DNA from: Phyllobates terribilis
Lineage: Eukaryota
Assembly: GCF_046119375.1 (NCBI RefSeq)
Contig: NW_027362790.1
Coordinates: forward strand, 6,386,001-6,450,000
Reading direction: 5' to 3'
DNA length: 64,000 nucleotides
Shown here: piece by piece, positions 12,143-60,726 of the stretch
Layout of the letters: each line of letters starts with the position of its first letter
How positions within the stretch are numbered: the first letter of the stretch is position 1
Program-made: the position numbers and the translations under genes
The notes under the pieces: model-generated
Databases searched by the model: none
Told to the model about the DNA's origin: nothing
The model's input: only the letters and a program-made list of their open reading frames with translations

Positions 12143-15100
12143 CTGCCAAGAATAAAACCAATTATTATTTTTGAATAAAATATTCTTGAATTATATATTT
12201 TTTAACATTTCTACTTAAACTGTAAAATAGCAACTCATGTAAAAAATATTGAATTATTCACCAAGAAAATTACAGTTCACAGTGTAATAGAAAACTTCAT
12301 AGCAAGACCCAGTAGAGCGTGATGTTCAACTGTTTGTTCATTCAGTCTCCCAAATATGGAATAAAAAGCCAAACAATGTTATATAGGCAAAAATAATACC
12401 AATAAAAATTTCTACTCATCTCACAAAAAACAAGTCCCCACTCAGGTCCATCATTTGTCAGTGGAAAAACAGAGTTTTTCACATGATTAGTGGCTCAAAG
12501 GCTCTTGAAAAGCAACGTTGTTTCTAAAAACCAATCCAGCAATATTCGCTCTCCCAAAGTCAAATCTCCCCCTCTCTTCTGAGCCTTGCAGGGTGCCTTG
12601 GCATTACTATAGCGAAAAGAACCCACTTAATTTACAGTGTGTGTCTCCTGGAGCACAATCTGGGCACTATGTGTTGGGCAATAAAATGGCATATTTGTAA
12701 TTTTCACTTTGAAACATCTACTGTGTGCTAATTTTCGGAAAGTGACTGTGGAGTCAAAGTAGTGACAACTTCTTAAGATTAATTCATTGAGGGTCATAAT
12801 TTTCAAAATGGAGTCAATATATGGGAATTTCTACTGCTCTGATTTTCTGACATTTTGTATGGTGTGGTGTGTCCCATATCCTCTGAGACCTGCTCCTGCG
12901 ACGTCTGCTTCTGTCACCAGGTGCTGTCCTATTTATTCTGCAGGCGGCGCTGGTGATTGAGAAGACGTCGGGACCAAAAGTTCTGGGCGGCACAGGCTCT
13001 GTCCAGCCACTTAGATTAGTTTGCATGGAGCCAGTAGTACCATTCAGTCTGGCGGTATGGGTGTGTGTGCTGTTCAGCTGAAGTAATCTGCTCCCTACTT
13101 CTGGCAATTGGAAAGCACCGCACCCTACTAAAGCTGGAAGCATATTGCCGGAAGCTGCCAGATCCAGCCTTGTTCTCCTCTGGTTCAGGCCTCTGTGATC
13201 AGCTCCCGGCTTGTGCATTTGGTTCCTGTTGTGACCTCGGCCCGTTTACTGACTATTTTTGCGTATTCTGATTTTGTACTTTCTCTGCCCTCCTGGTTAT
13301 GGCTACCGGACTATTCTTCTTCCCATATCACAGAACAGAACAGCAAGTAACACTATGGCCCAAGCCTAGGAGTATCTGCGTAAGTCCAGATCCATAAGGA
13401 AGGATTAAAGGGTAATGGGCAAAACTGTGACTATAGATAATAACACTGACTGAAATGATCAAGCTGAACAGTCTTCTTCAGTAAAAAAAACCTTTAGTCT
13501 GTAACTGTAACTACTAGGTAGTTAAAGACTCACATAGGTGAGGCAGGCCGATCCAACGCCAAATAAACTATCATACAGAATGAACATGTAAAAAAAATAT
13601 AACAATAAAAATATGTGTTACATCCCCAACACCAATGTATGTACGAAGGGAGAAATCCAACACTAAACCGGAGATGCACTCATTTATGGTGGACCATTGG
13701 AGCCACTAGGAGTCCTGACCATAAGAGTAGAGAAAGTATTAGTGCCCCCATTTCAGGAGAGATTGTGCAGGAATCTGAATTCTTTAGGATTGAAAACATA
13801 ATGTAATTTATGACGTTGAGTGAATCCATGAAACCAGGGCTCGAGCCATGCCACCACATCTCCTGCAGGCGTGAATAGATGTATATTACAGCCATCAGCC
13901 ACGCACAGCTTAGAGACATATCATGGCACAGGTGTAATGTTATTTATGTAGTTTTATCCCAATCCTGCTTGAAGTTATTCAGTTTTAAAAGAAATTAAAA
14001 AGTCAGAATAAAGGGAAACTTTGTACAGAAATTCACAATTGGCCCTCACTGCACATTTAATATTGTCGATCATAAAAGTGAAGTTTGGCCAGAAAGACTG
14101 GACCTGGTCTTGTAGGGACCATATGAGCACATTCAGCCGCACAGAAAGGAGAGAAGGTAGATTCATCCAATAAGATATCAGGGATCTAGGAAGCCAACAG
14201 CATCATTACCCTCCTCTTTCTCTTACAGGCCCATCAGAATATTTTCCTTCAAGTGATTTTCTCACTTGTCAGCACATTCTACGTACGCTGTCATTTGGCT
14301 TTGTAGTTTACAGATCTGGGAATGTAACGGTCAGCGTCTACTAATCCCAGGGGGTAGGTGGATCCCCAGGTTGCAAGTTCTCTAGAAAAGGAGTTTTCAA
14401 TGCCCAAATTCATTTGAACAGTTTTGGGTGGAGAAGAATGTTGTGGTCTAGAGGTAAAATGGTGATCACTCGAATGTGATACGGCCGGACTACACCACCG
14501 ATAAAGCAGCCACAGCCGGTGACTGAGAAGAATCTGTGACTTCTCTGCATTTAGTGGTCACTACTCACCTGGGTAGTCATATGTAGCAATCTCCTCTTTA
14601 CACTGCTCATCACCCCTCACATATGTCTCTGTAGTATTAATATGGGTCAGATCTTCACCCTGAAACAAATATTATAAAAGTCACAGACAGATGGAGAAGT
14701 CCCATCTATGATCAGCTCTAATCCTGTCATCTCCACCGTTCTCATTACACAAGTATAAAATATATAATACTGGTGGATAAAACAAGACTGAGCACAAGAC
14801 CTTCACAGCCGTCTACACATCATAGGGGAGATCTCATGACACCTTCTCTCCATCTACCTGATGATCCTGAGGAACATTGGGATCTTCTTGTTTACAGTCC
14901 TGTGGAAGAAGAGGACGGGGACATCTCTCTGGTGTTGTCCTCTTACTGGATGGATCTGGAGGAAACACATACAGGGACTGAATTCATTCTTTACATACAG
15001 ATAATTATAGGCCGTGTGTATTTAGTCCTATTACCTGGTGATGTGAGGGGCTGGGGAACCTCCATCATGATGTCCTTGTACAGATATTTCTGTCCTTCTA

Positions 15101-17608: not shown

Positions 17609-17910
17609 CAACCCCTGGCAAAAATTATGGAATCACCGGGCTCGGAGGATGTTCATTCAGTTGTTTAGATTTGTGCCATGTCTGTGATCAGCTTTTTTTC
17701 AACAACATTAAAGTCATTTCAAATGGCAACTCTATGGCTTTAAGAAACACTAAAAGAAATCAAGAAAAAAAATGTTGTACTCAGTAAGGGTAATTTTTTT
17801 CCAACCAAGCAGAGGGAAAAAATTATGGAATCACTCTGTAAATTTTCATTTCCAAAACTAACACCTGCATCAAATTAGATCTGCTCGGGGCGTGGCCTGG
17901 CTATGGAGGA

Positions 17911-19449
17911 GTGAAGTCGCAGGGTTGTTTGCTCCCGTCCCTGGCCCAGCTTCGGGGCATGCCTACCACATCAAATCGAGCCAAAATACTGCCAATGCCA
18001 GCAAAAAAGAAACGGAACATAACACAGATCAGTGTGAGTACCCAGCGGGCCTCTCCAACCAACATTACATGCTATCTGAGAAGCACTGCACCTGCTTCTC
18101 CTGCACAAGCGGGATCTAAGATGGCGTCGGCGGGCCCTGTACAGTGCTCCTCGGCTCCTGCATCGGAGCCTCTGAGCCCACGTGGTAAACGCTCCCCCAC
18201 ATCAAGATCAACAGACCAGGCGATACCTTCGTCGGCGGAGGACTCTCAGGCGTGGGAGAACACGGGAGGCCTCACCGTCGCAGCTACGGAGGACTCCCCC
18301 CAGTCCAAGATGGCGGACCCTGGTTTCGCGCCTCCGGGATTCAGGTGCGTGGTGGGGGATAGCTCCGTGCTCCAACCCCCGGACACTTCAGACTCAGCAG
18401 AGCTTACCTCTGCTGCAGGTCCGGACTTACAGAGACCCCAATGGTCCACTGATGACCAGAGATCCCCTGAGAGAGGCTCCTTCCCCACATTATTACGCTC
18501 TCCCTCTCCTGGCTGCTCAGAGGAGAGCCAACAGGATGATTTATCTCAGCATGAGGCAGTGTGGAAAGATCTCAAAGCTCGAATACGAGCTATCCCAACC
18601 AGGGAGGACATGGAGTCCTATATGTTCAGACTGGAGTCCTCCTACAGAGCTGAAACTGCTGCCATTAGAGGGGACATGCAAGAGTTAACAGAAAAAGTGT
18701 CTGCTGCTGAGTCACACACAGCATCCATCGCCCAACAAGTTAAATCCCATGAACAAACTTTGTCCTCCCACTCATACCAACTGGAATACCTAACAGATTT
18801 GATAGACGATATTGAGAACAGAGAAAGGCGCAATAATATTAGGATTAGAGGACTTCCAGAGACAATTGAACACCATAAATTGGATGAGACACTACGCCAT
18901 TTGTTCAACTCTATTCTGGGTTGGCTCTTAGAGAGTGAGTTGGAGTTAGACAGGGCCCATAGATCCCTGGGTCCCAGACCCTCTGACATGTCAAAACATC
19001 GAGATGTGATTTGCCGGGTTCATAAATACAAAATCAAAGAAAGCATCTTAATAAAGGCCAGAAAAATGAATTCTATTCTATATCAAGATCATCCTGTACA
19101 ACTCATGTCTGATCTATCACGTCACACACTTCAAAAGAGGAGGACTTTAAGACCTCTATTAGAGGTTTTGAGACAGCAGAACATATTATATTCTTGGGGT
19201 TTCCCTTTCCGCCTACAAGTCCGCCATTCTGGGGTTTTACATGTGGTACGCTGCCCTGGAGACATCCCGGCTTTTGTTAAGGGCTTGGGGATCCCCCACG
19301 TATCTATATCATCAGAGGATTGGCCAAGTCTCCCAGGAGGCCCCAAGTCGGATCTCAATCCTCAATCACAAAAAGTGACAAGAAACAAAGCCAGAGAAGA
19401 ATCTAGAAGAGAGATCAATAGGAAACACGTTCCGCATCCCCCAGATTGA
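17911..19449 (+). CDS. L1 ORF1p (uninterrupted; true start codon uncertain)
   Basis: Coiled-coil region, then IENRERRNNIRIRGLPE, LELDRAHR, DLSRHTLQKRR and WGFPF motifs of L1 ORF1. Confidence 0.9.
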   Translation: MKSQGCLLPSLAQLRGMPTTSNRAKILPMPAKKKRNITQISVSTQRASPTNITCYLRSTAPASPAQAGSKMASAGPVQCSSAPASEPLSPRGKRSPTSRSTDQAIPSSAEDSQAWENTGGLTVAATEDSPQSKMADPGFAPPGFRCVVGDSSVLQPPDTSDSAELTSAAGPDLQRPQWSTDDQRSPERGSFPTLLRSPSPGCSEESQQDDLSQHEAVWKDLKARIRAIPTREDMESYMFRLESSYRAETAAIRGDMQELTEKVSAAESHTASIAQQVKSHEQTLSSHSYQLEYLTDLIDDIENRERRNNIRIRGLPETIEHHKLDETLRHLFNSILGWLLESELELDRAHRSLGPRPSDMSKHRDVICRVHKYKIKESILIKARKMNSILYQDHPVQLMSDLSRHTLQKRRTLRPLLEVLRQQNILYSWGFPFRLQVRHSGVLHVVRCPGDIPAFVKGLGIPHVSISSEDWPSLPGGPKSDLNPQSQKVTRNKAREESRREINRKHVPHPPD

Positions 19450-20085
19450 AACATCTCTCACAAAAAGGACCTGTGGTCAATTCTCTAGCCCTCAGTGCTA
19501 GTCAAGCTGGTGAAAGACATTAGAATGTTATGTTCCTCTAAAATGTTGGTGAAAGACATTAGAATGTTATGTTCCTCTAAAATGTTCTCAACGTAGAATA
19601 TAGTTGATATTTTGAATACCTCACGTATGTGACTGGTTATCAGTGACAAAACTGATTGTACTATGTCAATAGTATTCAGTTCTTGGGAGGTACAGATATT
19701 ATCTCACAAGGTTATGTGATATATTGATTTGAGATTTAATATAGTGATAAGCAGATGTTAATCTATGACAGTTTTTGGCTGCCTTTATATCAAAGTTTTA
19801 GTACAAAAGGTTTGGCCTGTTGTTTGGGCTTGGGGGGGGACGGCTCCTCGGTAGAAAGCCCATTCTCTCAAGGGGTTTACACACTGCTGGCATGTGTAAA
19901 ATAGACTCATCTCCCCTCATCAGATTGTTTTCTTTATTCTAATTTTATTTTTGTTCCCCTTTTGCTTTCTCGTCCCTTTCCCCCACCCCTTTTTTTTTTT
20001 TTTTTTTCTCTCTACATATTTTGTACCTTTTTTCTTAATTTTCGTCTCCTATCTCACCCCACCCCCTTCCTCACCCTTGGTAATC

Positions 20086-23000
20086 ATGTCATCTTTTAAA
20101 GTAGGTTCATTGAATGTAAGAGGCTTTAATGTCCCACAGAAACGTTCTCAAATTTTATACTCTATGCACAAACAAAAAGTTCAGGTTCTTATGTTACAAG
20201 AGACGCATTTTAAAATGGGGCATGTGCCTGTTCTTGGTGATAGGTATTATTCTCGATGGTTTCACAGCACTAATATGGATTCACGCTCTAAGGGTGTATC
20301 CATAGCCATACACAAATCGTTGGCTTACACTTTCATGGATTCTCTCATTGATGATCAAGGCAGATATGTGTTTTTAAAACTTAAAATAGCGGAATCAATA
20401 TATACAATAGCAAATTGGTACCTCCCTAACAAAGATCAGATCCCCACGTGTAGGTCCTTTTTAACATTCCTCTCTGAATTTGCAGAAGGTATTCTGATTG
20501 CAGGTGGAGACTTTAACTTCACATGGAATCCCGCGCTAGATTCATCCTCAGGAAGGGGTGTTGTCCCTTCGAGAAGGCTCCGATCACTGAAGCGGGCCAT
20601 CCACGCCCTCAGATTGACAGACGTTTGGCGAATCTTAAATCCTCAGGGTAAGGATTACACATATTTTTCTCCTGCGCATGGTTCATATAGTCGCATTGAT
20701 TTCTTCCTGTTGAGTCATCACGCTCTTTCTTTAAACCCATCTGCCACAATAGGCGACATGTTGTGGTCTGATCATGCTCCAATTTTTCTATCCCTATCTA
20801 TTCCTTCCTCTGTCCGACGCTCGTGGACATGGAAAATGAATGATCACCTTCTCAAGGATAGTATCTGCATGACAGAATTAAAAGATTCTATTGATTCTTT
20901 TATGCAAATTCACAAAACAGATCAGACCTCAACTCCTCTGCAATGGGAAACTCTAAAATGTGTCATGAGAGGCGTGTTGATTAAACATGGTTCAAGACTC
21001 AAAAAAGAATGAACACAGAGGGTGAATGACCTGTTGAGACAGATACACATATTGGAGATATCGCACAAACATACATTGTCACCTAATACACTTGCAGAAC
21101 TATCAAAAAAAAGGAATGATCTTAAGATCTTGTTTGAGCAAAAATATATAAGACACAGGGAGCAAACTAAAAGTTTTTTTTATGAATCGTCGGATAAATG
21201 TGGACGGGCACTCTCAAGATTGCTTCATCCTCGTTCTGCGGCAACATACGTTCCATATATCAAGAAACAGAATGGGGAGGATGCCCATAACCCTACAGAA
21301 ATTATCGAGACATTTCGCTCATACTATGAGAAGTTATATAAAGGGCAATATTCTGATCTCTCTCCCTGTGACCTAACTGCCCGAATTAAAGAGTATATAC
21401 AGGATACTTCTTTACCATCTTTAGATAGCCAGGTCTCTGGGGAACTGGAAAAAGACATCACGGAGGAGGAGGTCAATCTTGCTATTCAATCTACACCATC
21501 TGGTAAAAGTCCTGGCCCAGACGGATTTACCCCAGCATTCTATAAGTCCCTTAAAACTCAACTATCCCCTATTATGCATAAAACATTTAACTCACTAAAT
21601 GATAAGACGTGTTTCGTCCCCCAATCAGTGGAAGCTCATATTAGTATCCTTCCTAAACAGGGTAAAGATCTTACAAATACGGCTAATTATAGACCCATAT
21701 CATTAATAAACGTAGACATTAAAATACTCTCCAAAATTCTAGCAGAAAGACTGGCCCCATTGTTACCCTCCCTTATAAACACAGATCAAGTGGGATTTAT
21801 TCAGGGCCGAGAGGCAAGAGATAACACCATTAAGACCATGTTGCTAATCTCCAAAGCTAAAAGCAACTCCGTACCTATGGGCCTTTTATCTGTTGATGCA
21901 GAGAAGGCCTTTGATAGGGTTCATTGGCAATTTATGAAGGAAGCACTAAGCCAAATAGGCATTGGACCACGATTTTTACAGTTGATTTTCTCCTTGTATT
22001 CAGGTCCTACTGCCAGAGTTAGGGTTAATGGAACCCTTTAAGATACAAAATGGGACTAGACAGGGGTGCCCTCTTTCCCCCCTTCTGTACATGATAGTGA
22101 TGGAACACCTGGCCAACGCTATAAGGAAAAATAGTAGTATTCAAGGGGTTAAAATAGGTACAAGGACTTATAAGACAGCATTATATGCAGATGATCTCCT
22201 CCTCTATGTATCTCAACCTCAGACATCTCTTCCTTCCTTAATGAAGGAGTTTGACAGATTTGGGTTCCTGAGTAATTTCAAAGTTAATTACTCAAAATCG
22301 GAGGCATTAAACGTGTCATTGCCACAGAGAGAGGTTAAACAGGTAATGGACAACTTCCCTTTTAAGTGGAAATCGGAGGCGATAAAATACTTGGGAGTGC
22401 TCGTTTCTTCTGATTTGTCAAAAATGTATGCGCTAAACTACCAGTCTCTCTTGGACCGTACATGTAAAGATTTACTAAATTACAGTAAACTGAGAATGTC
22501 CTGGTTTGGCAAAATGAATGCCGTAAAAATGGATATACTTCCCCGTTTTTTATACATTTTTCAAACTGTCCCTATCTCTCCCCCATGCAGCTATTTCAGC
22601 AGATTACGTACAGTATTAACTAGGTTTGTGTGGGGTAAAGGTAGACCTAGGATAAGTATGCAGACTTTAAACCACCCTAAAGCAGCTGGTGGAGCTGGAT
22701 TTCCGAATTTTAAAACATACTTTCAAGCCTCTGCTTTGGGTCGCCTTCTAGACTGGCACTATAATTCTTTGACAAAGCAATGGGTCACTGTTGAGCAGGA
22801 GGGAGTTGTTGTTCCTTTGAAGCACCTTCCCTGGCTCTTCGCCTCAGACGTTTCCTCAATTGGAGGTTTATCTGAATTGACTAGGGGTACAATCAAAATT
22901 TGGCATGCAATTATGAAAAAACACTTTTCCTCTAGTACAATCAGCCCTCTTATGCCATTATTCTCCAATCCCTCCTTCCCTCCTGGATATTTGAGGGATT

Positions 23001-23878
23001 CTTTCATGGGATGGAGAGCTAGGGAGGATGTTCGCCTTCTGCAGATATTCGAAAATGGTAGATTTCCGTCATTCAATACAATACGAGATAGGTATCCGTC
23101 TAGAAAACTCCAGTGGTTGGAATATCTACAGTTACAATCGTTTTTATCGTCTAGGGGGGCAGCACCCCTATTCCAGTGTACACCATCTTCCTTTGAGAGA
23201 CTGTTTTTGCAGGAATCTCCTCCCAACCATGTAATATCCATGCTTTATAATTGTCTGATAGGGGTAAATATCTCAGGAAAGCTTAATTTTCAACATAAGT
23301 GGGAACAGGAATTGGGACATATCATACCCTCGTCAGACTGGGAAAAAGGTTTCTTGTTTACACACAAAATGTCAGGTACAAATTATGCGCAGGAGAAAAA
23401 TTTCAAAATTATGGCAAGATGGTATCAGTATCCTGTGAAACTCCACTCCATATTTCCGGCAACTTCAGACATGTGTTGGCGATGTGGAGTGGAAAAGGGA
23501 TCTATGCTCCACATTTGGTGGGAATGTAGTCAGATCAAACCTCTGTGGGAAAAAACATTCTCCAACTATAACCTAATTACTGAAAATAGGGTTGAGAATT
23601 GCTCTGAGATAGCCCTACTTTCCATCCTGCCTTCATCGATTAGATCCCAAAAAAAAGATATCTTAAGATTTTGTTTAACAGCAGCTCGTGCGGTGATTCC
23701 ACGTTATTGGAAGTCACCTCAAATTCCCCCAATCTCAGAGTGGTACAATGAAATGGCTTATATCTGCTGAATGAAGCTTTCTGCTGATTTCAATGATTGT
23801 GCGGATAAATTCATGAAGATCTGGAGTGTTTGGATCTTGTTCCAAGACTCGTCGGAGTTCCACGGGCTATTTGGGTAA
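20086..23878 (+). pseudogene. L1 ORF2p (APE endonuclease - RT - Cys-rich), three lesions
   Basis: ATG at 20086. In-frame TGA at 21010-21012, frameshifting deletion near 22035, in-frame TGA at 23768-23770, natural TAA at 23876. Motifs GDFN, SDH, QGCPLSP, YADD, CWRC..H.WW.C. Confidence 0.93.
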
Positions 23879-36151: not shown

Positions 36152-36224
36152 ATGACAATTTATTCAATATGATGACCTAATGTAAAAAACTTCTATGTCG
36201 TACTTCTGGGTTCAAAATGTTCAC

Positions 36225-38185
36225 TATGCACCTTAATAAAATCCTTGAGGGGTATAGTTTCCAAAATGGGGTCACTTGTGGGGGAGCTCCACTGTTTAGG
36301 CACATCACGGGCTCTCCAAATGCGACATGGTGTCCACTAACAAATTGAATGGAAAATCGGCTCAAATTGTTAGCGGACGCCATGTTGCGTTTGGAGAGCC
36401 CCTGTGTGCCCAAACATTGGAGCTCCCTCACAAATGACCCCATTTTGGAAACTAGACCCCCCAAGGCACCTATCTAGATGCATAGTGAGCACTTGGAACC
36501 CCCAGGTGCTTCACAAATTGATTCATAAAAATGAAAAAGTGTTTTTTTTTCACTTTTTCATTTTTACGAATCAATTTGTGAAGCACCTGGGGGTTCCAAG
36601 TGCTCACTATGCATCTAGATAGGTGCCTTGGGGGGTCTAGTTTCCAAAATGGGGTCACTTGTGGGGGAGCTCCAATGTTTGGGCACACAGGGGCTCTACA
36701 AACGCAACATGGTGTCCGCTAACAATTTGAGCCGACAATTTGTTAGCGGATACCATGTTGCATTTGGAGAGTCCCTGTGTGCCCAAACATTGGAGCTCCC
36801 CCACAAGTGACCCCATTTTGGAAACTAGACCCCCCAAGGCACCTATCTAGATGCATAGTGAGCACTTGGAACCCCCAGGTGCTTCACAAATTGATTCATA
36901 AAAATGAAAAAGTGTTTTTTTTTTCACTTTTTCATTTTTACGAATCAATTTGTGAAGCACCTGGGGGTTCAAAGTGCTCACTGTGCATCTAGATAGGTGC
37001 CTTGGGGGGTCTAGTTTTCAAAATGGGGTCACTTGTGGGGGAGCTCCAATGTTTGGGCACACAGGGGCTCTCCAAACGCAACATGGTGTCCGCTAACAAT
37101 TTGAGCCGACAATTTGTTAGCGGATACCATGTTGCATTTGGAGAGTCCCTGTGTGCCCAAACATTGTAGCTCCCCCACAAGTGACCCCATTTTGGAAACT
37201 AGACCCCCAAGGCACCTATCTAGATGCATAGTGAGCACTTGGAACCCCCAGGTGCTTCACAAATTGATTCATAAAAATGAAAAAGTGTTTTTTTTTTCAC
37301 TTTTTCATTTTTACGAATCAATTTGTGAAGCACCTGGGGGTTCCAAGTGCTCACTATGCATCTAGATAGGTGCCTTGGGGGGTCTAGTTTTCAAAATGGG
37401 GTCACTTGTGGGGGAGCTCCAATGTTTGGGCACACAGGGGCTCTCCAAACGCAACATGGTGTCCGCTAACAATTTGAGCCGACAATTTGTTAGCGGATAC
37501 CATGTTGCATTTGGAGAGTCCCTGTGTGCCCAAACATTGGAGCTCCTCCACAAGTGACCCCATTTTGGAAACTAGACCCCCCAAGGCACGTATCTAGATG
37601 CATAGTGAGCACTTGGAACCCCCAGGTGCTTCACAAATTGATTCATAAAAATGTAAAAGTGTTTTTTTTTCACTTTTTCATTTTTACGAATCAATTTGTG
37701 AAGCACCTGGGGGTTCCAAGTGCTCACTATGCATCTAGATAGGTGCCTTGGGGGGTCTAGTTTCCAAAATGGGGTCACTTGTGGGGGAACTCCAATGTTT
37801 GGGCACACAGGGGCTCTCCAAACGCAACATGGTGTCCGCTAACAATTTGAGCCGATTTTCCATTCAATTTGTTAGCGGATACTATGTTGCATTTGGAGAG
37901 TCCCTGTGTGCCCAAACATTGGAGCTCCCCCACAAGTGACCCCATTTTGGAAACTAGACCCCCCAAGGCACCTATCTAGATGCATAGTGAGCACTTGGAA
38001 CCCCTAGGTGCTTCACAAATTGATTCGTAAAAATGAAAAAGTGAAAAAATGGGGTCACTTGTGGGGGAGCTCCAATGTTTGGGCACACAGGGGCTCTCCA
38101 AACGCAACATGGTGTCCACTAACAATTTGAGCCGACAATTTGTTAGCGGATACCATGTTGCATTTGGAGTGACCCCATTTTGGAA
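36225..38185. repeat. Array of alternately inverted 185-bp monomers (period about 373 bp)
   Basis: Symmetry centres near 36540, 36913, 37285, 37660, with a second set of centres between them. Confidence 0.95.
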
Positions 38186-38556: not shown

Positions 38557-41500
38557 ATGGGCAAGGCGCGTGGCAAGGGACGTGGAACTGGACGTTCTGG
38601 TGATGGTGCATGTAGAGGATGGGGCCGTGGCCAAGGTGAAAATGTGCCACAACCAACAGCCACATCTTCTCACTCCCAGTACTTGACCGAATTACTAGGG
38701 AAGCACACAACAACACCAGTATTGGGAACTGATCAGTGTGCACAGGTTATTAATTGGATAGCAGATAATACTTCCAGTTACCTGGGCACCACCACCTCCC
38801 GTCTGTCTTCCACACGGTCAAGTTTTAGTAGCCGTGAGTCTCGACCGCATACTCCTCCTCACCCTGATGCTCCTTCCTTCCACCATGCCGAGTGTCGTCA
38901 GACAGCAACTGATCCCACACTTGGACACTCTGAAGAGCTGTTCACTGGTCCATTTCCATATTTGTGCCTCTCGCCTGCTCCGCTTGAAGTGGTGGAAGAG
39001 GAGATCCCATGTAGCGATGCCCAAATATTTGAACAGCCATGGCCACAGGAAGTCGACGCTGGCAATTTGTCACAAGAGGTGGACGATGACGAGACACAAT
39101 TGCCACGAAGTGAGGAGGAGCATCGTGGTGCGCAAGTGGAAGAGGAGGAGGTGGTGGATGATCTAGTAACTGACCCAACGTGGCAGGAGGACACGCAGAG
39201 CGAGGCCAGCAGCACACAGGGGGAGGGAGGCAGAGTACCCCAACAGGCAGGAAGAAGCAGTGTGGTGGCCGCACACAGAAGGTGGGCAACAGTTCCCCTG
39301 TAACACCAACACGAGGGACGTTGCCAGTACAACCGGTAGGTCTTCCAGAGTCTGGAATTTTTTTAAAGACTCAGCTGATAACCCCAAAAAGGCCATTTGT
39401 ACCACCTGCCATGCCAGCATCAGCAGGGGTGACAAAACTACCAGCCTGACCACCACCAACATGATCAGGCACATGGCAGCAAAGCACCCGACTTTGTGGG
39501 GCGAACCCCAGGGTCCACGACCAGTGTCAGCGGGTGTCACCACTGCTTCTTCCGCTCTTGTGCATGTAATAGAACCCCCTGTTGTGCGTGCAAGGCAATC
39601 CCCTGTCCATACTGCATGCAAAGATGCCCCCTCCTCTCAGTCTTCACTTGTTATGGCAGTTTCTCAAGAAACAGCATCAATGTCCACGTCCCACTGCAGC
39701 GTTCAATTGTCCATATCCCAGACCTTTGAACGAAAGCGCAAATTCGCAGCCAACGCCCGACAGGCCACAGTCCTAAATTCGCACATTTCACGACTGCTTG
39801 CGTTGGAAATGCTACCTTTTAGGCTGGTGGAGACGGAATCCTTCTGCAACCTTATGGCGGTGGCCGTCCCTTGGTACTCGGTCCCCAGCCGACACTATTT
39901 TGCCCGGTGTGCCATCCCCGCACTACACAAACACGTGTCCCAAAACATCTGCCATGCCCTCAACAAAGCAGTCACTGGGAGAGTCAACCTGACAACGGAC
40001 GCATGGACAAGTGCTTGTGGCCAGGGACGGTACATCTCCCTGACGGCATACTGGGTAAACATAGTGGAAGCCGGGACCCAGTCGGACCTTGGGACGGAAC
40101 ACATCCTCCCCACACCGAGGATTGCGGGCCCTATGTCAGTCAGAGTTGCCCCCACAGTGTACAGCTCCTGCGCATCATCCTCCTCCTCCTCCTCATGTTC
40201 AGCCTCCATCTCAGATATCACCACATCAGTTACAAGCTGGAAGCACTGCAGTACTGCCTCAGCCAAGCGGCAACAGGCTGTACTGAAACTCATAAGCTTA
40301 GGTGATAAACCACACACTGCTTGTGAGTTGTGGACAGCTGTGAAAGAGCAGGCAGATCTGTGGCTGAGACCGCTGAACATACATCCAGGCATGGTCGTGT
40401 GTGACAATGGCCGTAACCTGGTGGCGGCTCTGAGGCGAGGCGAGATCACACACGTACCATGCCTGGCTCATGTGCTTAACCTCGTGGTTCAGCGGTTTCT
40501 TAAATCGTACCCCGAGTTGCCAGATCTGCTCGTCAAAGTACGCCGCCTGTCAGCTCATTTTTGCATGTCAGCTACAGCTTCCGCCGCCCTTGCTGTGTTG
40601 CAGCAGCGTTTGCAGCTTCCGTCACACCGACTGGTGTGTGATGTCCCCACACGTTGGAACTCTACCCTCCACATGTTGCAAAGGATTTGTGAGCAGAAGA
40701 GAGCAGTTGTGGAGTACCAGCTGCAACAAGGCCATCAATATTCAGGTCAGACTCCACACATAAGACCTCAAGAGTGGACCTGGATGTCTGACATATGTAC
40801 CATCCTGACAAACATCATTAGAGTCAGCATCCCACTTGTCTGTCTTTTGAAACGCTCTCTGCAGAGAATTAAAGAGGAGGCATTGCAGCCAGAGTATGAT
40901 GAGATGGATCAAGAGATTACACACAACCCAGCCTCATCTCATCCCAACGTGCATTGGGGGACAATGAGGGAGAGGAGGAGGAGGAAGAACAGGAGCTGGT
41001 ATCATGTGCTTTAGACGGTAGTACCTGTACAACTGTCATACCGTCGGTTCAGCGTGGGTGGCCTGAGGACAGGGGGGAGGAGGAGAGCATAGTCAGTCGT
41101 CATCCTGGTGAGGACACGGAAGTCTTGCCCGTTACCAGTCTGGCACGCATGGCTGACTTTATGTTACGCTGCCTTAACCGTGACCCTCGTGTTGTCAAAA
41201 TGTTGGGTGACAGTCATTACTGCTTGGTGACACTTTTAGACCCCCACTACAAGGAGAACTTTCACTCTCTTATTCCTGAGGTGGAGAGGTCTACAAAAAT
41301 GGGGCAGTACCAGAAGGCCCTTGCTGCAGAACTGTTAAAAAATTCCCATCTGAACACGCTAGCGCCAGAGGTCACAGTTCGTTGCCCAACCAAGACGTAC
41401 AGGCGAGAGAGATGCAACTCCAATCCAGCAGAGGCAGGGGATCACTGTCAACCTTCTGGGACAGTTTTCTGAGACCCGCCCAGCTTACAGGCCCTGAGGC

Positions 41501-43330: not shown

Positions 43331-43765
43331 GGAGTGCCTCGAAATTTTTGGTAGGCATTGCACTCACTGTATGCCCTATAACTGTGTAGCTGAACCGCTC
43401 CTTTTGGTACAGAAACATATCCTACCAGACATGTGTGGTTGACTGGCCTGATAATGATGAGAATGGTCCCCGTTCCTCCTGCTCTTTATCCTTTGCCACC
43501 ACCTCATCCATCATTCATCACCTGAAGCTTTGTTTTAACGGGAGTCATAGAACTGGGATAGTAGCAGGAAAACATCCAGCAATCCTCGGAGGAGGTAGGA
43601 TATGCGCCAAAACGCTGACCACCTCAGTCCTAGCAGCTACTACATACATGCGCTTTCATTCCAAGGAACAGAAAGCTAAGGAGATGGATGGCCTCATGAT
43701 CATGAATAATTTACTCGTTGTGTAGGAGGCCGACCACTGCTGCTGTCTACCTTCTGAACTTTGTA

Positions 43766-45404
43766 CCAGACAATGTGAACTGAGGTCTAAGATGGCAGAC
43801 ATACAAGAAACAGAGGCATGTTCACACTAGCAAAAAGGAAGCAAGACAAAAATATATCTCATACCCTACCATAATTATATATAAATGTAAAGCAAAATTG
43901 CATAATAAATATAGGGTACTTAGTGAACTATTTTTGATCAAAAAAAGTATACAAGCCGTCCCACCAGCGGCAAGGTGACCCTAAATTGGGACGGTACCTA
44001 TACTGCCTATATTAAAAACCTTACTGTATATCAAAGTTGAAGTAATGCATATAAAAGGGTAGACAAATAGGACCGGGTCCCAACTCCAGACCACCTAGGC
44101 CCGTGGTAAGCTACATATATATACCAATCAGCTCAACAAAGGGCATGCCACACCCTTAAATTGCACAGAATGCAAACAAGTCAAAAAAACAGACAATGTG
44201 AACTGAGGTCTAAGATGGCAGACATACAAGAAACAGAGGCATGTTCACATTAGCAAAAAGGAAGCAAGACAAAAATATATCTCATACCCTACCATAATTA
44301 TATATAAATGTAAAGCAAAATTGCATAATAAATATAGGGTACTTAGTGAACTATTTTTGATCAAAAAAAGTATACAAGCCGTCCCACCAGCGGCAAGGTG
44401 ACCCTAAATTGGGACGGTACCTATACTGCCTATATTAAAAACCTTACTGTATATCAAAGTTGAAGTAATGCATATAAAAGGGTAGACAAATAGGACCGGG
44501 TCCCAACTCCAGACCACCTAGGCCCGTGGTAAGCTACATATATACCAATCAGCTCAACAAAGGGCATGCCACACCCTTAAATTGCACAGAATGCAAACAA
44601 GTCAAAAAACCAGACAATGTGAACTGAGGTCTAAGATGGCAGACATACAAGAAACAGAGGCATGTTCACACTAGCAAAAAGGAAGCAAGACAAAAATATA
44701 TCTCATACCCTACCATAATTATATATAAATGTAAAGCAAAATTGCATAATAAATATAGGGTACTTAGTGAACTATTTTTGATCAAAAAAAGTATACAAGC
44801 CGTCCCACCAGCGGCAAGGTGACCCTAAATTGGGACGGTACCTATACTGCCTATATTAAAAACCTTACTGTATATCAAAGTTGAAGTAATGCATATAAAA
44901 GGGTAGACAAATAGGACCGGGTCCCAACTCCAGACCACCTAGGCCCGTGGTAAGCTACATATATACCAATCAGCTCAACAAAGGGCATGCCACACCCTTA
45001 AATTGCACAGAATGCAAACAAGTCAAAAAAACAGACAATGTGAACTGAGGTCTAAGATGGCAGACATACAAGAAACAGAGGCATGTTCACACTAGCAAAA
45101 AGGAAGCAAGACAAAAATATATCTCATACCCTACCATAATTATATATAAATGTAAAGCAAAATTGCATAATAAATATAGGGTACTTAGTGAACTATTTTT
45201 GATCAAAAAAAGTATACAAGCCGTCCCACCAGCGGCAAGGTGACCCTAAATTGGGACGGTACCTATACTGCCTATATTAAAAACCTTACTGTATATCAAA
45301 GTTGAAGTAATGCATATAAAAGGGTAGACAAATAGGACCGGGTCCCAACTCCAGACCACCTAGGCCCGTGGTAAGCTACATATATACCAATCAGCTCAAC
45401 AAAG
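43766..45404 (-). repeat. 421-bp near-identical tandem array (3.9 units), probable Penelope pseudo-LTRs
   Basis: CAGACAATGTG at 43767, 44190, 44611, 45032. An inverted copy at 45409-45741 joins directly to a Penelope RT. Confidence 0.93.
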
Positions 45405-45426
45405 CAGTAATATAGGCAGTATAGGT

Positions 45427-45510
45427 ACCGTCCCAATTTAGGGTCACCTTGCCGCTGGTGGGACGGCTTGTATACTTTTTTTGATCAAAAATAGTTCACT
45501 AAGTACCCTA
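45427..45510 (+). ncRNA. Candidate HDV-like ribozyme (also on the minus strand in each tandem unit)
   Basis: P1 CCGTCCC/GGGACGG, P3 ACC/GGT around L3 TTGCCGCT, P2 TAGGGT/ACCCTA, hairpin-capable P4, J4/2 CTAA, in HDV order. Deviations from consensus are listed in the finding. Confidence 0.5.
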
Positions 45511-45741
45511 TATTTATTATGCAATTTTGCTTTACATTTATATATAATTATGGTAGGGTATGAGATATATTTTTGTCTTGCTTCCTTTTTGCTAGTGTGA
45601 ACATGCCTCTGTTTCTTGTATGTCTGCCATCTTAGACCTCAGTTCACATTGTCTGGTTTTTTGACTTGTTTGCATTCTGTGCAATTTAAGGGTGTGGCAT
45701 GCCCTTTGTTGAGCTGATTGGTATATATGTAGCTTACCACG

Positions 45742-47060
45742 GATGCTAGACTCCAGAAACTAATTCTGGAATTATTGGAATTTGTATCGACTCATAATTA
45801 TTTTACATTCAAGGATCGTTACTATCTACAACGTCGAGGGATGGCGATGGAGGTGACTTGTTCCCCCTCATATGCCAACCTCTTTATGGGTTTGTGGGAA
45901 CGGAACCACATGTTGCCTTACCTTTCTAGTGTATCTGGTCCGTCTGTAATCAGTTGGATGCGATTTATAGACGACGTCCTTTTCATCTGGCAAGGGGATA
46001 GGATTGAATTGGATCGGATTTTGAAACATTTAAACACCAACGATTGGAATGTTAAGCTGAGTTTTAACGTCACTCGGGATAGGATTAATTTTCTGGACCT
46101 ATTGATTACTATTGATCAGTTTGGAACTATCCACAGTAGCATTCATCATAAGGACACTAGTACTAACTCAATATTGCATGCTAACTCAGCACATCCTTTG
46201 CACACCATTAGAGCTATCACTAAGGGACAGTTTATTAGAGCTCGCCATATTTGTGGTTCTAATAGTGAATTTGAAGCTCAAGCTAGGACTCTGACGTCTA
46301 GATTTTTGCGTCGGGATTATGATATAGGTGTTATTGATAATGGGTACCAACAGGCTAGGGATATGGATCGAAATGTTCTTATCCATAAAAAAACCCTACG
46401 CAAAGAGGATTCTAGACTAAGGATCATAACTAACTACCATAGTAGGTGGAGGGATATGACGGCTATAATCAATCATTTTTGGCCCATTTTAAAACAGGAT
46501 CCTGTGCTTTCAAAATTGATTGAGGATAGACCCCTTATTACTGCGAGAAGGAGCAGAACGATTGGTGAAACTATAACACACAGCCACTATGTAGCTCCAG
46601 GATCCAAATTTATTTTTGGGTCTAAGGGACCTAGATGAGGTTCTCAATCATGTGGTGATTGCAATATTTGTTGCTTTATGGTAAAAACTGATGGATTTTC
46701 CAACTCTGCTGGCACCCGGACGTATAAGATTGTCCATTCCATTAATTGTAAAACTACAGCTGTCATTTACCATCTCACATGTCCTTGTGGCCTAGTTTAT
46801 ATTGGATTCACTTCAAGGCAATTACGTGTTCGGATACAGGAACACATAAGGGAAATTAAATCTGCAAGGCTTTTGGACCAGGATGGCACCTATAAGGAGG
46901 ACACTATGAAACTGAAGACATTACCTGCCCATTATCGTAGTCATCATCCACTGGGAATTATAGAAAGGCAAGTCTGTGGTATTGATGTTGTCCTTATGGG
47001 TATACATGGTGGACATCTTATGAATAGATTGGCCCAGAGGGAGTGTCGTTGGATAAAGAC
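45742..47060 (+). mobile_element. Penelope-like (Neptune-type) element, 5'-truncated RT + GIY-YIG endonuclease
   Basis: RGMAM...PSYANLFM, RFIDD, INFLDLLI; CGDCNIC linker; VIYHLTCPCGLVYIGFT..LRVRIQEH. One in-frame TGA at 46636. Cut at 47061 by a hAT terminus. Confidence 0.93.
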
Positions 47061-47940
47061 TAGTGTTGAGCCACCCCCGTAGTGTTCGAGTTCGGTTCGG
47101 TTCGTCGAACACCCGTGTGTTCGCCGAACTGTTCGTCGAACTGTTCGTCGAACACCTTCGAACACCGTTAAAACCAATGGCAGGCAAACAAAAACACATA
47201 GAAACACATAGAAAACACCTTCAAAGGTGTCCAAAAGCTGACAAACTGCTCAGAAGACACAACTAACACATGGAAAAGTGACAAGTACATATAGTCATGC
47301 GAAAAGAAAAGAGGTGGAGGAGTAAAAGGAGGGGGAGACACAGATATAGGCATGTCATGCCCTTCTAAAATCCAAAAAGTGAGAAGCCGAGACGGCCAGT
47401 CCGCTCCTGCCCGTGCCACCTCCGTGTCGCCGGGTTTGTGCCAGAGCCGCGGTGAACCCTGACGGCCAGCCCCCCTCTCCCAATACTGGTGCCTGTCCGC
47501 TGGTGGGTCGAGAGAGCCCCCCTGTGGTGGAGGCAGCTCTAAGCTTTTTAATTTAAATTGTCCCTCTAATTTGAATGAATACACTTTAAATCCATTTACA
47601 AGGATCTATTGGAGGGCAAGTCTCATGCCAGCAGCCGCGTAATTCCAGCTCCAGTAGCGTCCACTAAAGCTGCTGCAGTTAAAAAGCTTTTATAAGGATC
47701 GAGCTCGGCTGTCCACCGCAAGGCATCCTAGTGCCAGTCCCAGCCCCTATGCCTTGGGGTGCCTCCTGATGCTCTTCACTAAGTATCCCGTGGTCCCGAA
47801 GCATTTCCTTTGAAAAAATTAAGTGTCCAAACTACAGGTGGTGTAGCTTGCTTAACAGCCGGGATAATCCGCTGACTAGCAGACACTGCTACTAGGCACA
47901 AAGTATTTCCTGGGCTAGATGCAGTTAAAAATTTGTAAGT
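47061..47940 (-). mobile_element. hAT terminal segment with TTCG subterminal repeats
   Basis: TAGTGTTGAGC terminus at 47061; repeated GTTCG..CGAAC; CTAGATGCAG.TAAAAATT motif shared with 51345 and the 55325-56290 array. Confidence 0.75.
47562..47837 (+). pseudogene. Degenerate 18S rRNA fragment (530-loop to V4 region)
   Basis: CACTTTAAATCC..GGATCTATTGGAGGGCAAGTCT..TGCCAGCAGCCGCG.TAATTCCAGCTCCA.TAGCG...GCTGCAGTTAAAAAGCT...CCCGAAGC.TTT.CTTTGAAAAAATT follows conserved eukaryotic 18S with many substitutions and indels. Confidence 0.9.
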
Positions 47941-51534: not shown

Positions 51535-54500
51535 TTACTCTCCCCAGGATGACACAGGGGTAGAAAAGTCGTTTCGGATCCATGATTTGTTCATCTTTAT
51601 GAACGTGAGTCTGTCTACATTATCAGTGGAGAGCCGCGTGCGCTTATCTGTCAGCACACCACCAGCAGCGCTGAACACACGTTCAGACAGAACGCTGGCT
51701 GCGGGGCATGACAAGATCTCCAAGGCGTAAGTGGCTAGCTCCGGCCATTTATCCAGATTGGAAGCCCAAAAAGAGCAAGGGTCCAGTGACACAGTCGTGG
51801 CTTCAATGTTTACTTGGAGATACTCCTGTACCATCGTCTCTAGGCGTTGACTATGTGTCAGACTTCTTGTCTCCTGTGGCCTTGCAAAGGATGGGCTAAA
51901 AAAGTGGTGAAATGATTCCGCAAAATTGATGTTACCAGCAGATACTGTGGTTCTGTTACGGTTTGAGTGCTGAACACTTGACGGTCCCACGGTTGGCAAG
52001 TTGGAACTGTGAGATTCACTACGTGCACCACTGGTATTTTGTGGAAAAGCACATGTAAGATTCTGCAACAGTCTCTGCTGATACTCCTGCAGGAATAATT
52101 TCTGCAAATTTACTTTTGTACCGGGGATCTAACAGTGTGGCAACCCAGTAGTCAGGATTATTTCTAATTCTCACAATTCGAGGGTCATGTTGCAGGTAGT
52201 GCAGCAAGAAGGCACTCATGTGTGTTGCGCATCCAGGAGCACCAAGTCCCTGTTGTGTTGGTGGCGAGGTAACAATCATGCTTCCTTCCTCTGTCCTCTC
52301 CCCCCAACCTCGCACAACAGAAATGTGATCAAGGTCTCCCTCATCTGATGAGTCTTCCATCAGTTCGTCCTCCACTTCTTCCTGGGCTCCTGCACCTTCC
52401 TCACTAGTTTGGCTGCTACCATGCGCCCTGGTAAAACCATCTCCCCCACCCTCACATGCCTGCCGCCTTGGTGCTGCCGACCTTCTGGACCTTGCAGATG
52501 TTAGCCCTTCCGCATACAACTCCTCCTCCTCTACTTCCTCCACCTCCTCTTGTGCCACCACCTGACTCCGAATTCTGTTTAACATGTGCTCCAGCATGTA
52601 AATCACCGGAATAGTCATGCTGATAATGGCATCGTCAGCACTAAACATCTTCGTCGCCATTTCAAAACTGTGCAGAAGGGTGCATAGGTCCCTGATCTGA
52701 GACCACTCCTCCAGCGTGATTTGCCCCACCTCTGAATCTCGTTGGCCCAGGCTATACGTCAGAACGTATTGCACCAGGGCTTGTCGGTGCTGCCACAGTC
52801 GCTGCAACATGTGCAGAGTTGAATTCCACCGGGTAGGCACATCGCATTTTAGCCAGTGAAGTGGCAGGCCCAACGACTTCTGTAGAGATGTAAGTCGCTG
52901 AGCTGCGGGATGCGAACGGCGGAAGTGAGCACACAGCGACCGTGCCCTCTGCAGAAGGCCATCTAGTCTGGGATAGTGGGCTAAAAATTGCTGGACAACC
53001 AGGTTCAACACGTGAGCCATACAAGGCACGTGTGTGACATTGCCCCGGCGAAGGGCCGCACCCAGGTTTGCAGCATTGTCGCACACGGCCTTCCCTGGTT
53101 TCAGGTCCAGTGGAGACAACCATTCATGAAATTGGTTCTCCAGAGCTGACCACAACTCCTCAGCTGTGTGACTCACATTTCCCAGACATTTCAATGTAAA
53201 AACCGCCTGATGACGTTGAGCCCTACTGCCAGCATAGTAAGGAGGTGTGCCGGATCCCTTCTGCGCAGTTAGAAAGCTTGTGGCATGACCAGACAGGCTT
53301 TGGGTGCAGGTGGAAGACCGAGAGGAGGTTGAGGAGGCAGAAGCAGTGGAGGAACTTTGACATAAAGAGGATTGACGCACAACTCGTGGGGACGGCAAGA
53401 CTTGGACAGCAGCCCCTTGTCCTGCTGTCACCATAGTTACCCAGTGCCCAGTCAGCGACATGTAACGCCCCTGTCCATGCCTACTCGTCCAAGTGTCTGT
53501 GGTGAAATGCACCCTGTCACACACAGAGTTTCTCAAAGAAGCGGTGATGTTGTGTGCGACATGCTGGTGGAGCGCAGGCACACCTTTCTTTGAGAAGTAG
53601 TGCCGACTGGGCATCTGGTACTGGGGCACTGCGACGGACATAAGGTCTCGAAAATCCTCTGTGTCCACCAGGCGGAAAGGCAGCATTTCTGTAGCCAATA
53701 GCTTGCAGATGGTGAAATTCAACCTCTTAGCTTTCTCATGGCTAGGAGGAAATGGTCTTTTACTTGTCCACATCTGAGGGACCGAGGGCTGGCTATTGTG
53801 CTTAGACGGGGTTGATAAGGGTGTCCCCGGCAAACTGCCGGTCTGTGAGGAAGATGCAGGCGGACATGTTAGGTTGCCTTCATCCAAAGGTGGTGCTATC
53901 GATGTCGGACAGCGCTCAACACCAGCTGGTGTTACCACCTCCAAAGAAAATGATGACCTGCCAATCACGCTGGCTGTTGCGGGTAAAGAGGTGGCAGGTC
54001 TGCGCCCCAAAACAGGTGTGACTGCTGTCCCCCCAGTCACAGAGGATGAAGAGGCCGCGGATGCACAAGATATGGCAGACGGCGGTTGGCCCGGCCGGCT
54101 AGGCCGCATTGTAGCACACTGAGCTTCCCACTGCAACTTATGCTTCATGTCCATGTGCCGGTTCATGCATGAAGTACTCAAACTATGTATTTTTTGGCCT
54201 CTACTTAGCTTTTGCTGACAAATGTTACAGATAACACGAGTTGGGTCATCTTTATCGATCTGAAAAAATGCCCAGGCTATGCAAGGCTTAGCACCCATGC
54301 GACCTGAAGAGCCACCACGACTTGTGGTGAGAGGCAGAGTTGTGTTTGAGGATGCAGTTGTTGACGTGCTTCCAGTACTACGTCTCTGTCCAGGAAGGCG
54401 CAACCTGACCTCGTCGTCACTAGCATCTTCCTCCACCTCCTCTGCTGACCTCATCTCTTGGCTGACTGTGGGTTGACAGTAAGTGGGATCTCCGACCTCA

Positions 54501-55213
54501 TCATCATCACCCTGTGCGTTATCACACCCGTCGTCCTCAGAGCCAACCTGTTCCTGCCCTGACAAAAAACTAAAGTTGTCGCTCCAATCAGGTATTTGAG
54601 TCTTATCATCGTCTTCCTCATTGTCTCCACCAACAGGAGTTACAGTTTGGGAATGAGGGTCTACATTATGGTCAGAACCTTCTGCGTCTGGTCCTGGATC
54701 CGACTCATAAAGATTCTGGGCATCAGTGCAGATCATTTCCTCGTCTGGATTCACAGAAGCGCTGGAGTCGACCTCTGATTCCCAGGCTATAGTATGAGTA
54801 AACAGCTCTGCAGACTCAACCATCTGTTCTACCTCATACTCAGACGGGCAGCTGGAGATTTGGGAGCTGTGAGGAAGCAAGTGCGATTTGGGTGACACCT
54901 TTGAGGACTGGAGTATTTGTGATGTTGAAGTTGATGTGGAGGAGAGCCCACTTAAAGGAGCACTTGATATCCGTTGAAGCACCTGCTGTTTTTGTGCCTC
55001 ATCTGGAATTTGTAGCGATTGGCGTGGCCGTAAGAAAGGGATCTTATCACATTGTCCGCTAAAAGAAGTAGACATTTTAGTTTGGCTGGAAGATGGTCTT
55101 TCTTCTGCAGATGTTACTGTTGCTTTAACACCTACCCCACGGACACAACCTTTTTTCCCCTTCCCAACACGCCTATTCCCCTTTCCACCAGCAGCAGGCC
55201 TTTTTCCACTCAT
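51535..55213 (-). pseudogene. Near-intact hAT transposase (about 1200 aa; one frameshift near 52090)
   Basis: 1064-aa ORF with BED finger, FTTDTWTS, VCDNA, HVPCMAH, DVPTRWNS, plus a 190-aa ORF with hATC (SERVFS..IKMN). Confidence 0.93.
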
Positions 55214-55324
55214 TTTGGTGGTTAACTAATTCACAACTCTGGAGTTGTTTGCACAAAAAAACAATGGATGGTAACCGAGCAGAGCTGAGTGGCCAAACTG
55301 TGGTATTAGGCCAAAACTATTGGC

Positions 55325-58984: not shown

Positions 58985-59618
58985 GATTGTGATGTCATGA
59001 AGATGACTTGAATTTCCACCATTAAGAGAACAGCATTGCTGGTCATTTATATTAAGTAAATTGGATATTCATTCTTCTCGATTGTGATGTCATGAAGATG
59101 ACTTGAATTTCAACCAATCAGAGATCAGCATGTTTCAGGTCACCCAGATAGAACAGTCCATGAAACATGAGTCACGGCCACTGTGAGGTCATAATGCTGA
59201 TTAGAATTTCCACCAATCAGAAAACAGAATTGCCCAGAAGAACCACCCAGGAGGTATGAGTCATCGCCACTGTGAGGTCATAATGCTGACCAATCACAGA
59301 GCAGCCATGCCCAGATTTTCCACCAATCACAGAGCAGGCACCCCCAGATTTTCCACCAATCAGAGATAAGCAGTGGGTATAAATAGCAGCCACACCCAGA
59401 TTTTCCACCAATCAGAGATCAGCAGTGGGTATAAATAGCTGCTGCCGCCTGCCCGGCTTAGCCTTGCACTGGTTGGGTCTCTCTCTTTTTCTCTCTCTTG
59501 GTATCTCCCGGTATCTCTCCTTCCCCTCTCTCTCTCTTTGACCCAATGGCCCTCTTAAGGGCTACCCCAAATGTGTAAAAGATAGAACCAATATTTGTGT
59601 TGTTTGTCCGTTTTATGA
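58985..59618 (+). promoter_or_regulatory. Histone-gene-like unit, copy 1: CCAAT cluster, TATA, stem-loop, HDE, no CDS
   Basis: Multiple CCAATCA; TATAAATA at 59378 and 59430; GGCCCT-CTTA-AGGGCT at 59548-59563 flanked by CCCAA/ACCCCA; AAAAGATAG at 59577. Confidence 0.6.
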
Positions 59619-60377: not shown

Positions 60378-60726
60378 ACCACCCAGGAGGTATGAGTCAT
60401 CGCCACTGTGAGGTCATAATGCTGACCAATCACAGAGCAGCCACACCCAGTTTTTCCACCAATCAGAGCAGCCATACCCAGATTTTCCACCAATCAGAGA
60501 TCAGCAGTGGGTATAAATAGCCGCTGCCGCCTGCCCGGCTTAGCCTTGCACTGGTTGGGTCTCTCTTTTTTCCCTCTCTTGGTATCTCCCGGTATCTCTC
60601 CCTTCCCTCTCTCTTCTCTCCCTCCCCTCTCTCTTCTCTCTCTCTCTTTGACCCAATGGCCCTCTTAAGGGCTACCCCAAATGTGTAAAAGATAGAACCA
60701 ATATTTGTGTTGTTTGTCCGTTTTAT
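60378..60726 (+). promoter_or_regulatory. Histone-gene-like unit, copy 2
   Basis: Direct repeat of about 59240-59608. TATAAATA at 60512, stem-loop at 60658-60673, HDE-like at 60687. Confidence 0.6.

Follow-up and report, generated by a model that had tools for sequence, protein, structure and literature searches.

Within a 64,000-nucleotide stretch of the Phyllobates terribilis genome (the window), an array of 421-bp tandem units abuts the remains of a Penelope-like element (PLE), and each unit seems able to adopt the fold of an HDV-like ribozyme. The locus therefore raises the question of whether this fold is real and selected, whether it cleaves, and by what machinery the unit has been spread. 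The reading that we find reasonably probable is that the unit is a non-coding, non-autonomous retroelement, with an HDV-like fold predicted to cleave itself between A-1 and C+1, and that it is likely copied by a Penelope-like reverse transcriptase (RT)/endonuclease.

The HDV-like fold and its conservation

A descriptor scan located the fold five times in the window. The plus-strand copy (45428..45510) lies in an inverted right arm, and the four minus-strand copies lie in units 1 to 4 of a left arm (45177..45259, 44756..44838, 44335..44417 and 43912..43994), with P1 starting at 45259, 44838, 44417 and 43994. In the plus-strand copy, P1 pairs 45428-45434 with 45460-45466, P3 pairs 45446-45448 with 45457-45459, and P2 pairs 45439-45444 with 45505-45510 and is extended by C45445-G45503 across a bulged T45504; L3 occupies 45449-45456 and J4/2 (CTAA) occupies 45499-45502. 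Cleavage is predicted between A45427 and C45428, with C45499 as the predicted catalytic cytosine. A first-pass annotation had proposed these helices and their presence in every unit, including the four minus-strand P1 starts; all of its helix coordinates proved correct when the letters of the window were read again, and the scan returned the same positions.

The relaxed HDV descriptor was composed after the motif had been seen, so that the rate obtained on dinucleotide-type shuffles (4 matches in 101,750,400 shuffled bases, or 0.005 per window) is a lower bound on chance. The fold in the window is not a chance product. An additional weak match with a 5-bp P2 (56666-56758) is unrelated and probably fortuitous, and an Rfam scan of the window returned no ribozyme family at E<=5.

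Related copies fall into four families. A and B are subfamilies of 421-439 bp that are mutually 95-97% alike, and C and D are two older sister families with an overall identity of 61-68% to A/B. We compared 29 A, 20 B, 30 C and 32 D copies, all distinct, which had been extracted because they resemble the P3-L3-P1' core and J4/2-P2'. Conservation in these parts is therefore partly built in; matching changes on the 5' strands are free of that bias. At the second P1 base pair, C-G in A (27/29) and B (18/20) is replaced by U-A in D (30/32). At the third, A has G-C (27/29), C has G-U (17/30) or A-U (10/30), and D has A-U (28/32). At one pair of P2, A-U prevails in C and U-A in D, and in the four of 30 C copies that carry the D letter on the P2 3' strand the pair is broken unless the 5' side has changed as well. 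Covariation, named by the first-pass annotation as the check on its proposal, is thus present as compensatory changes between families in both P1 and P2. P4 changes are mostly one-sided and P3 is invariant, partly through the selection of copies. L3 position 23 and position -1 vary across families A-D, while G22, C38, U21, U39 and CUAA are kept.

On 26 distinct C and D rows, 93.9% of cells were paired, a value reached by none of 500 shuffles; the covariation score was likewise matched by 0/500, and slid controls paired 43-53%. The alignment behind these counts holds the 29 of 32 C and D segments that passed a stricter filter (one duplicate locus and two chimeric junctions were dropped), and A/B were excluded, as their P1 had been shifted out of register by the aligner. 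The covariation depends on about three events: the number of doubly changed pairs is three, which is not exceptional (219/500 shuffles were as high), and the combinatorial odds are 0.021 for the four P1 changes falling as two facing pairs and 0.09 for the two P2 changes facing each other. The window unit matches C and D copies at 18-20 of 23 and 35-36 of 42 core positions and at 34-36 of 77 positions directly downstream. That the fold is real and selected we regard as very probable. The descriptor is passed by just 1/30 C loci and 13/30 D loci, as expected for old, decayed copies.

Several further searches were made for relatives. Contig depth in sequencing run X5, from another organism, peaks over the core and the GTAAG region; none of the runs recorded as containing the unit is listed as RNA. 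A metagenome scan gave no match, and none of the 21 loci from a viral scan passed the descriptor. A supposed further family with an altered P3 was rejected, since all 30 loci inspected among the 166 pattern matches were antisense to coding sequence that we take to be hAT-like from its resemblance to the window's own frames. A loose end at 44827 in run X1 suggests another family with a different P1 5' strand; the corresponding genome search returned only one decayed D-like copy with a C-type P1.

The core retains the letters of HDV ribozymes at some positions and departs from them at others. U20, C24 and G25 of L3, singled out from the start, are each the most frequent letter in all four families, a result to which the anchors used in extraction contribute. 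J4/2, read as CUAA in the window by the first-pass annotation, is most often CUAA in all families, so that the catalytic-C and last-A positions are kept; its second position is U, where the canonical descriptor has a purine (PMC6326823, accessible text). The same descriptor has C-G in P1.1. Here G22 faces C38 in 29/29 A, 20/20 B, 24/30 C and 28/32 D copies, together with U21.U39. The letters of the swapped P1.1 pair suggested earlier are therefore kept across families, but its orientation is non-canonical and covariation is lacking: a pattern for a family with canonical C22-G38 had no matches.

At the cleavage site, the first P1 pair is C-G in families A-D, which differs from the canonical R-Y or G.U start of a 7-bp P1. 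The earlier alternative, an A.C pair in an extended P1, was discarded: families A, B and C have an A at position -1, 31/32 D copies have a U there, and C38 is kept. Because -1 changes while C38 stays, +1 is C45428, and the first-pass reading of a C in place of a purine stands. The bulge in P2 (T45504) is present in the window as had been noted, but is not general: C and D have an unbroken 6-bp P2. Judged from sequence, the bulge is a derived loss of one base. Upstream of the cut, the leader (45416-45427) can pair with 45503-45514, which includes the P2 3' strand, and so rivals P2. The leader helix was computed at -7 to -9 kcal/mol against -8.4 to -9.4 kcal/mol for P2 in representative A, B and D copies, and at -4.4 kcal/mol in C; it may represent a possible off state.

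The unit had been described as having no hammerhead, and the exact CUGANGA core is indeed absent from both strands in all seven natural units tested. An antisense hammerhead in the +168-222 element of A/B was considered and rejected, its core having one mismatch, its GAAA being misplaced and the motif being absent from C and D.

Array architecture and the adjacent Neptune fragment

The left arm (43765..45404, minus strand) comprises 3.9 tandem units of 421 bp; it begins at a candidate capped start (45404) and stops +230 from the cut, at the longer of the two preferred 3' ends. It meets the inverted right arm at a head-to-head inversion junction (45405..45407), in which 45405 reads as an untemplated, possibly cap-like G on the minus strand. 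The right arm (45408..45742, plus strand) extends from -20 to +315, and its end is unusual, an adjacent deletion having probably taken away the normal 3' end. A second folded element, a predicted three-way junction (45595..45649, plus strand), lies between the two preferred 3' ends and is a candidate binding or start site for the RT. A candidate internal promoter (45690..45712, plus strand) consists of what we take to be a GT-box-like motif and a pyrimidine-rich start at C45704, which has the same position in the unit as 45404, 44983, 44562 and 44141 on the minus strand. A conserved splice-donor-like GTAAGG (44863..44868, minus strand) occurs once per full unit, 30 nt upstream of the cut site. 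An acceptor-like TTGTAG near +160 is found in the 439-bp subfamily, B and D, reads TTAG in aligned C copies and is deleted in the window's subfamily.

The right arm is joined directly to a degenerate Neptune-type Penelope fragment (45743..47060, plus strand) with an RT end, a zinc-finger linker and a GIY-YIG domain, assigned to the Neptune clade from the linker motif. At empty paralogous loci, the left flank and the Neptune fragment lie 1,767 and 2,652 bp apart without the array, which indicates that the array was inserted into older debris and that a deletion then brought it against the RT. The unit is not present in other copies of the same Neptune, and no homology was detected when the unit was compared with that PLE family. 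The Neptune family has its own type I hammerhead-like motif in its 3' region, recognized by eye (L039, about 3795-3850; L040; L042). On the sequence of these loci, the fragment is an older resident of the target site and not part of the element. The empty loci, the hammerhead-like motif and the absent homology contradict the view of the unit as the adjacent Penelope's pseudo-LTR; the original label of a Penelope-associated repeat fails in this sense and survives only for a likely PLE-mobilised element. The window's composite locus occurs six times at >99.8% identity (C30, C51, C184, C207, C216 and C666), either as segmental duplicates or as assembly haplotigs.

Insertion footprints and traces of cleavage

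The 24-letter core pattern has 32,592 exact matches in the 10.6 Gb genome. The unit is non-coding and has no ORF, arrays range from one to more than 40 units at dispersed loci, and young copies are 99% alike; in these respects the element agrees with retrozymes, whose dispersed tandem units are non-coding and measure about 150-450 bp. At none of 166 loci does the repeat flank a PLE frame in the manner of a pseudo-LTR, and at four of them PLE pieces lay nearby; an ORF with RT and GIY-YIG flanked by the repeat, as in an autonomous PLE, was accordingly not encountered.

To this we add a sample unbiased with respect to ends, consisting of 24 consecutive stretches on one chromosome arm chosen solely by the core pattern, in which target duplications of 12-15 bp flanked 14/27 insertions compared with 1/27 in the control. 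The 3' ends clustered tightly, 34/35 falling at +143-176 or +220-258 (numbering shifts by up to 18 among subfamilies), and all eight two-armed insertions had one short-type and one long-type 3' end. The 3' ends of D and C fall in the same clusters, with target duplications at 7/29 D and 2/31 C insertions. Many insertions are only one or two units long and have target duplications, and a poly(A) tail is absent. The element thus shows the tandem and inverted insertions, the two internal 3' ends and the one-sided tail of a non-autonomous PLE, and its footprint fits the inverted 5' copies and one-sided tail of PLE insertions (PMC8557442) and the two internal RT starts of PLE reverse transcription (PMC11167929), as given in the accessible text of these papers. 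Mobilisation by a PLE is, in our assessment, quite probable. The HDV-like fold, the missing hammerhead core and the PLE-type dispersal together make the unit retrozyme-like. Arrays of about 40 units (L050-L053) have a higher-order periodicity of 2, 3 and about 11 units, and variants are shared array-wide in the short arrays L047, L054 and L055.

Traces of cleavage were sought at the ends and junctions of insertions. About nine 5' junctions fall at -1 and about 17 at +1, seven of the latter being explained by the P1 inverted repeat, compared with 10 at a control site, and the pile-up of 5' ends at the cut that was apparent at first was abandoned, the control having removed any clear excess. Within 15 nt of the cut lie 5 of 31 unbiased 5' ends (expected 2.2, p 0.06) and 5 of 19 in a second, query-biased set. 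Most 5' ends are scattered, and insertions mostly continue across the predicted cut site. Among 53 loci selected for junction differences, small indels were observed at the unit junction, and one array (L070/L099, G000:C5:114170346-114170793) has oligo(A) exactly at the predicted scissile bond in two successive junctions; both observations speak for cleavage followed by religation.

Of 573 A/B blocks, seven have foreign upstream sequence; five of these begin at the same C (-145), four of the five with an extra G (window 45404-45405, L047, L082, L107 and L100 being the common-C starts). These counts are to be read against 125 5' ends at 91 loci (about 33 selected), among which several other positions reach three ends. 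The extra untemplated G is presumably a copied cap, and the common C at -145 is a likely transcription start. If the G is a cap, the template of the window's left arm was a capped RNA in which at least one ribozyme, and perhaps as many as four, had stayed uncut, and the cap-like arms suggest linear, uncut templates at least in their own case. For a PLE from the anole, ribozyme cleavage is described as not needed for insertion in vitro, with uncut RNA as the main substrate (PMC11167929, accessible text). The predicted ribozyme is probably catalytic, and circles as the main intermediate appear doubtful.

Proposed mechanism, rival explanations and known systems

For a PLE-copied retroelement with a self-cleaving fold, the following course may be envisaged. 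RNA polymerase II would start 145 nt upstream of the cut, or read through, and produce a multi-unit RNA. The ribozyme would cut it slowly, because the leader pairs with the P2 3' strand about as strongly as P2 does, so that uncut multimers and unit-length pieces would coexist and some pieces might be ligated into circles. A helper enzyme would nick the DNA with a stagger of 12-15 nt, the footprint of which is seen, and cDNA synthesis would begin at one of two RNA sites, about +160 and +240, which flank the second folded element. With priming on both strands, the two arms of an insertion would stand head to head, one end being short and the other long, and the higher-order periods of some arrays would stem from later duplication at the DNA level or from multimeric templates.

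In a classical retrozyme cycle, cleavage into 421-nt monomers would be efficient, a host ligase would circularise these in abundance, and the arrays would arise through rolling-circle reverse transcription. Such a cycle would explain why 5' ends are mostly scattered and insertions mostly span the cut site, why variants run through whole short arrays, and why the junction shows small indels and oligo(A); the pairing of hammerheads with RtcB offers a precedent (PMC7229834, accessible text). We nonetheless judge this cycle rather unlikely, since cap-like starts head multi-unit arms, that of the window among them, and long arrays have periods of 2, 3 and about 11 units. The fold could instead be real and selected yet (nearly) non-catalytic, a protein-binding or splicing-control structure or a ribozyme relic within an intron of the element. 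The swapped P1.1 without covariation, the competing leader helix and the uncut templates proposed above point in this direction, as does the anole PLE with its insertion in vitro independent of ribozyme cleavage (PMC11167929, accessible text). That U20, C24, G25, the J4/2 C and its last A remain the commonest letters in four families, while position 23 and -1 drift, makes a non-catalytic role distinctly unlikely.

The two remaining explanations concern the mover and the fold itself. L1 insertions, too, have 12-15 bp duplications and 5' inversions, which counts in favour of movement by a LINE (twin priming of L1/Tx1 type), and the absence of a PLE partner among the 166 loci and the higher-order periods of long arrays would suit a LINE or a DNA-level satellite in place of a PLE. 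A LINE is at odds with the lack of a poly(A) tail and with the short and the long outer end, each at a fixed internal site, of 8/8 two-armed insertions, and the many insertions of one or two units with target duplications are unexpected of a pure satellite, so that we hold movement by either to be highly improbable. A chance fold, or a pseudo-LTR of the adjacent Neptune, might be argued from the post hoc descriptor, the one weak chance match in the window and the arm that adjoins the Neptune fragment; covariation, conservation centred on the core, the empty paralogous sites and Neptune's own hammerhead-like motif largely refute this notion, to which we assign a negligible probability.

The PLE-copied, HDV-bearing element that we favour resembles several known systems in part. 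Metazoan non-LTR retrozymes are defined by a type I hammerhead and have a PLE as proposed helper (PMC7229834; PMC7761336; bioRxiv 10.64898/2026.07.22.740005; accessible text in each case). They and the present family have in common that the units are non-coding, measure a few hundred bases and contain one ribozyme motif each, that the tandem arrays are dispersed, here in an amphibian-like genome, and that a PLE is the proposed helper; in contrast to them, our unit has an HDV-like fold and no CUGANGA, no homologous pseudo-LTR was found for it in the adjacent Neptune family, and circles are only conjectural here. PLEs and their pseudo-LTRs (PMC8557442, PMC11167929 and PMC4209133, as far as their accessible text goes) likewise insert in tandem and inverted form, with a tail on one side and two internal 3' ends, and in both cases the repeat has a candidate promoter and intron; unlike them, the unit has no ORF, a tail of about 75-85 nt as compared with 30-40 nt, and a different ribozyme class. 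R2, L1Tc/NARTc, RTE and Baggins also carry an HDV-like ribozyme inside a retroelement, non-autonomous ones included, but there the cut is the element's 5' end (PMC3774820 and PMC6765202, accessible parts), whereas insertions of our unit extend past the cut, with 5' ends that lie scattered or are inverted.

At the level of the fold, fungal HDV variants with C-G at the cleavage site have been shown to cleave (Li & Breaker 2017, PMC5640933, accessible text). The unit shares this C-G, and the window's subfamily has a C between the 6-bp P2 and P3; it differs from these variants in a P4 without recognised loop E and, in families C and D, in pairing of that C within P2. The CPEB3 ribozyme has a one-pair P1.1 with U-U (bioRxiv 10.1101/2022.09.22.508989, accessible text), and the P1.1 of the unit is similarly one G-C-type pair with U-U in a setting that may also be intron-like; CPEB3 has a 7-nt L3 and C22-G37 and resides in a single gene, as opposed to the 8-nt L3, the G22-C38 and the multicopy mobile repeat found here.

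The literature examined links hammerheads with animal retrozymes and PLE repeats, and HDV-like ribozymes with LINE-type 5' ends; the present family crosses that line. Neither a PLE repeat nor a retrozyme with an HDV-like ribozyme is described in that literature; the HDV catalogues (Webb 2009, 2011; Ruminski 2011) and repeat databases fell outside its scope, and a prior listing is possible. We advance only tentatively a Penelope-driven retrozyme lineage with an active HDV-type ribozyme in place of the hammerhead, with genomic HDV ribozymes in the tens of thousands and genome-encoded HDV-ribozyme RNA circles in amphibians; if true, vertebrates would harbour a reservoir of the sort that has been proposed to donate ribozymes to delta-like agents. 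The family supports the concept of small ribozymes as interchangeable modules (PMC7761336, accessible text) and lends itself as a natural test case for a core of non-canonical type (C+1, G22-C38), which escapes both canonical descriptors and Rfam. Since young copies record RT starts, tails, target duplications and cap-like ends, the role of cleavage in PLE-type mobility becomes testable, and with it the long-standing question of whether the PLE-type template is a circular or an uncut linear RNA.

Elsewhere in the window, a short 18S rRNA-like fragment (47541-47660) scored above the Rfam gathering score, and two histone-3'-stem-loop-like matches (59543-59587 and 60653-60697) scored below it. 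Reading frames at 9963-12161 (minus strand), 17842-23770 (plus), 39170-41014 (plus) and 52019-55225 (minus), listed together, presumably represent a C2H2 zinc-finger array, an L1-like element and hAT-like transposase frames, to judge from their translations. A palindromic 373-bp tandem repeat at 36208-38043 gave rise to spurious microRNA-family matches.
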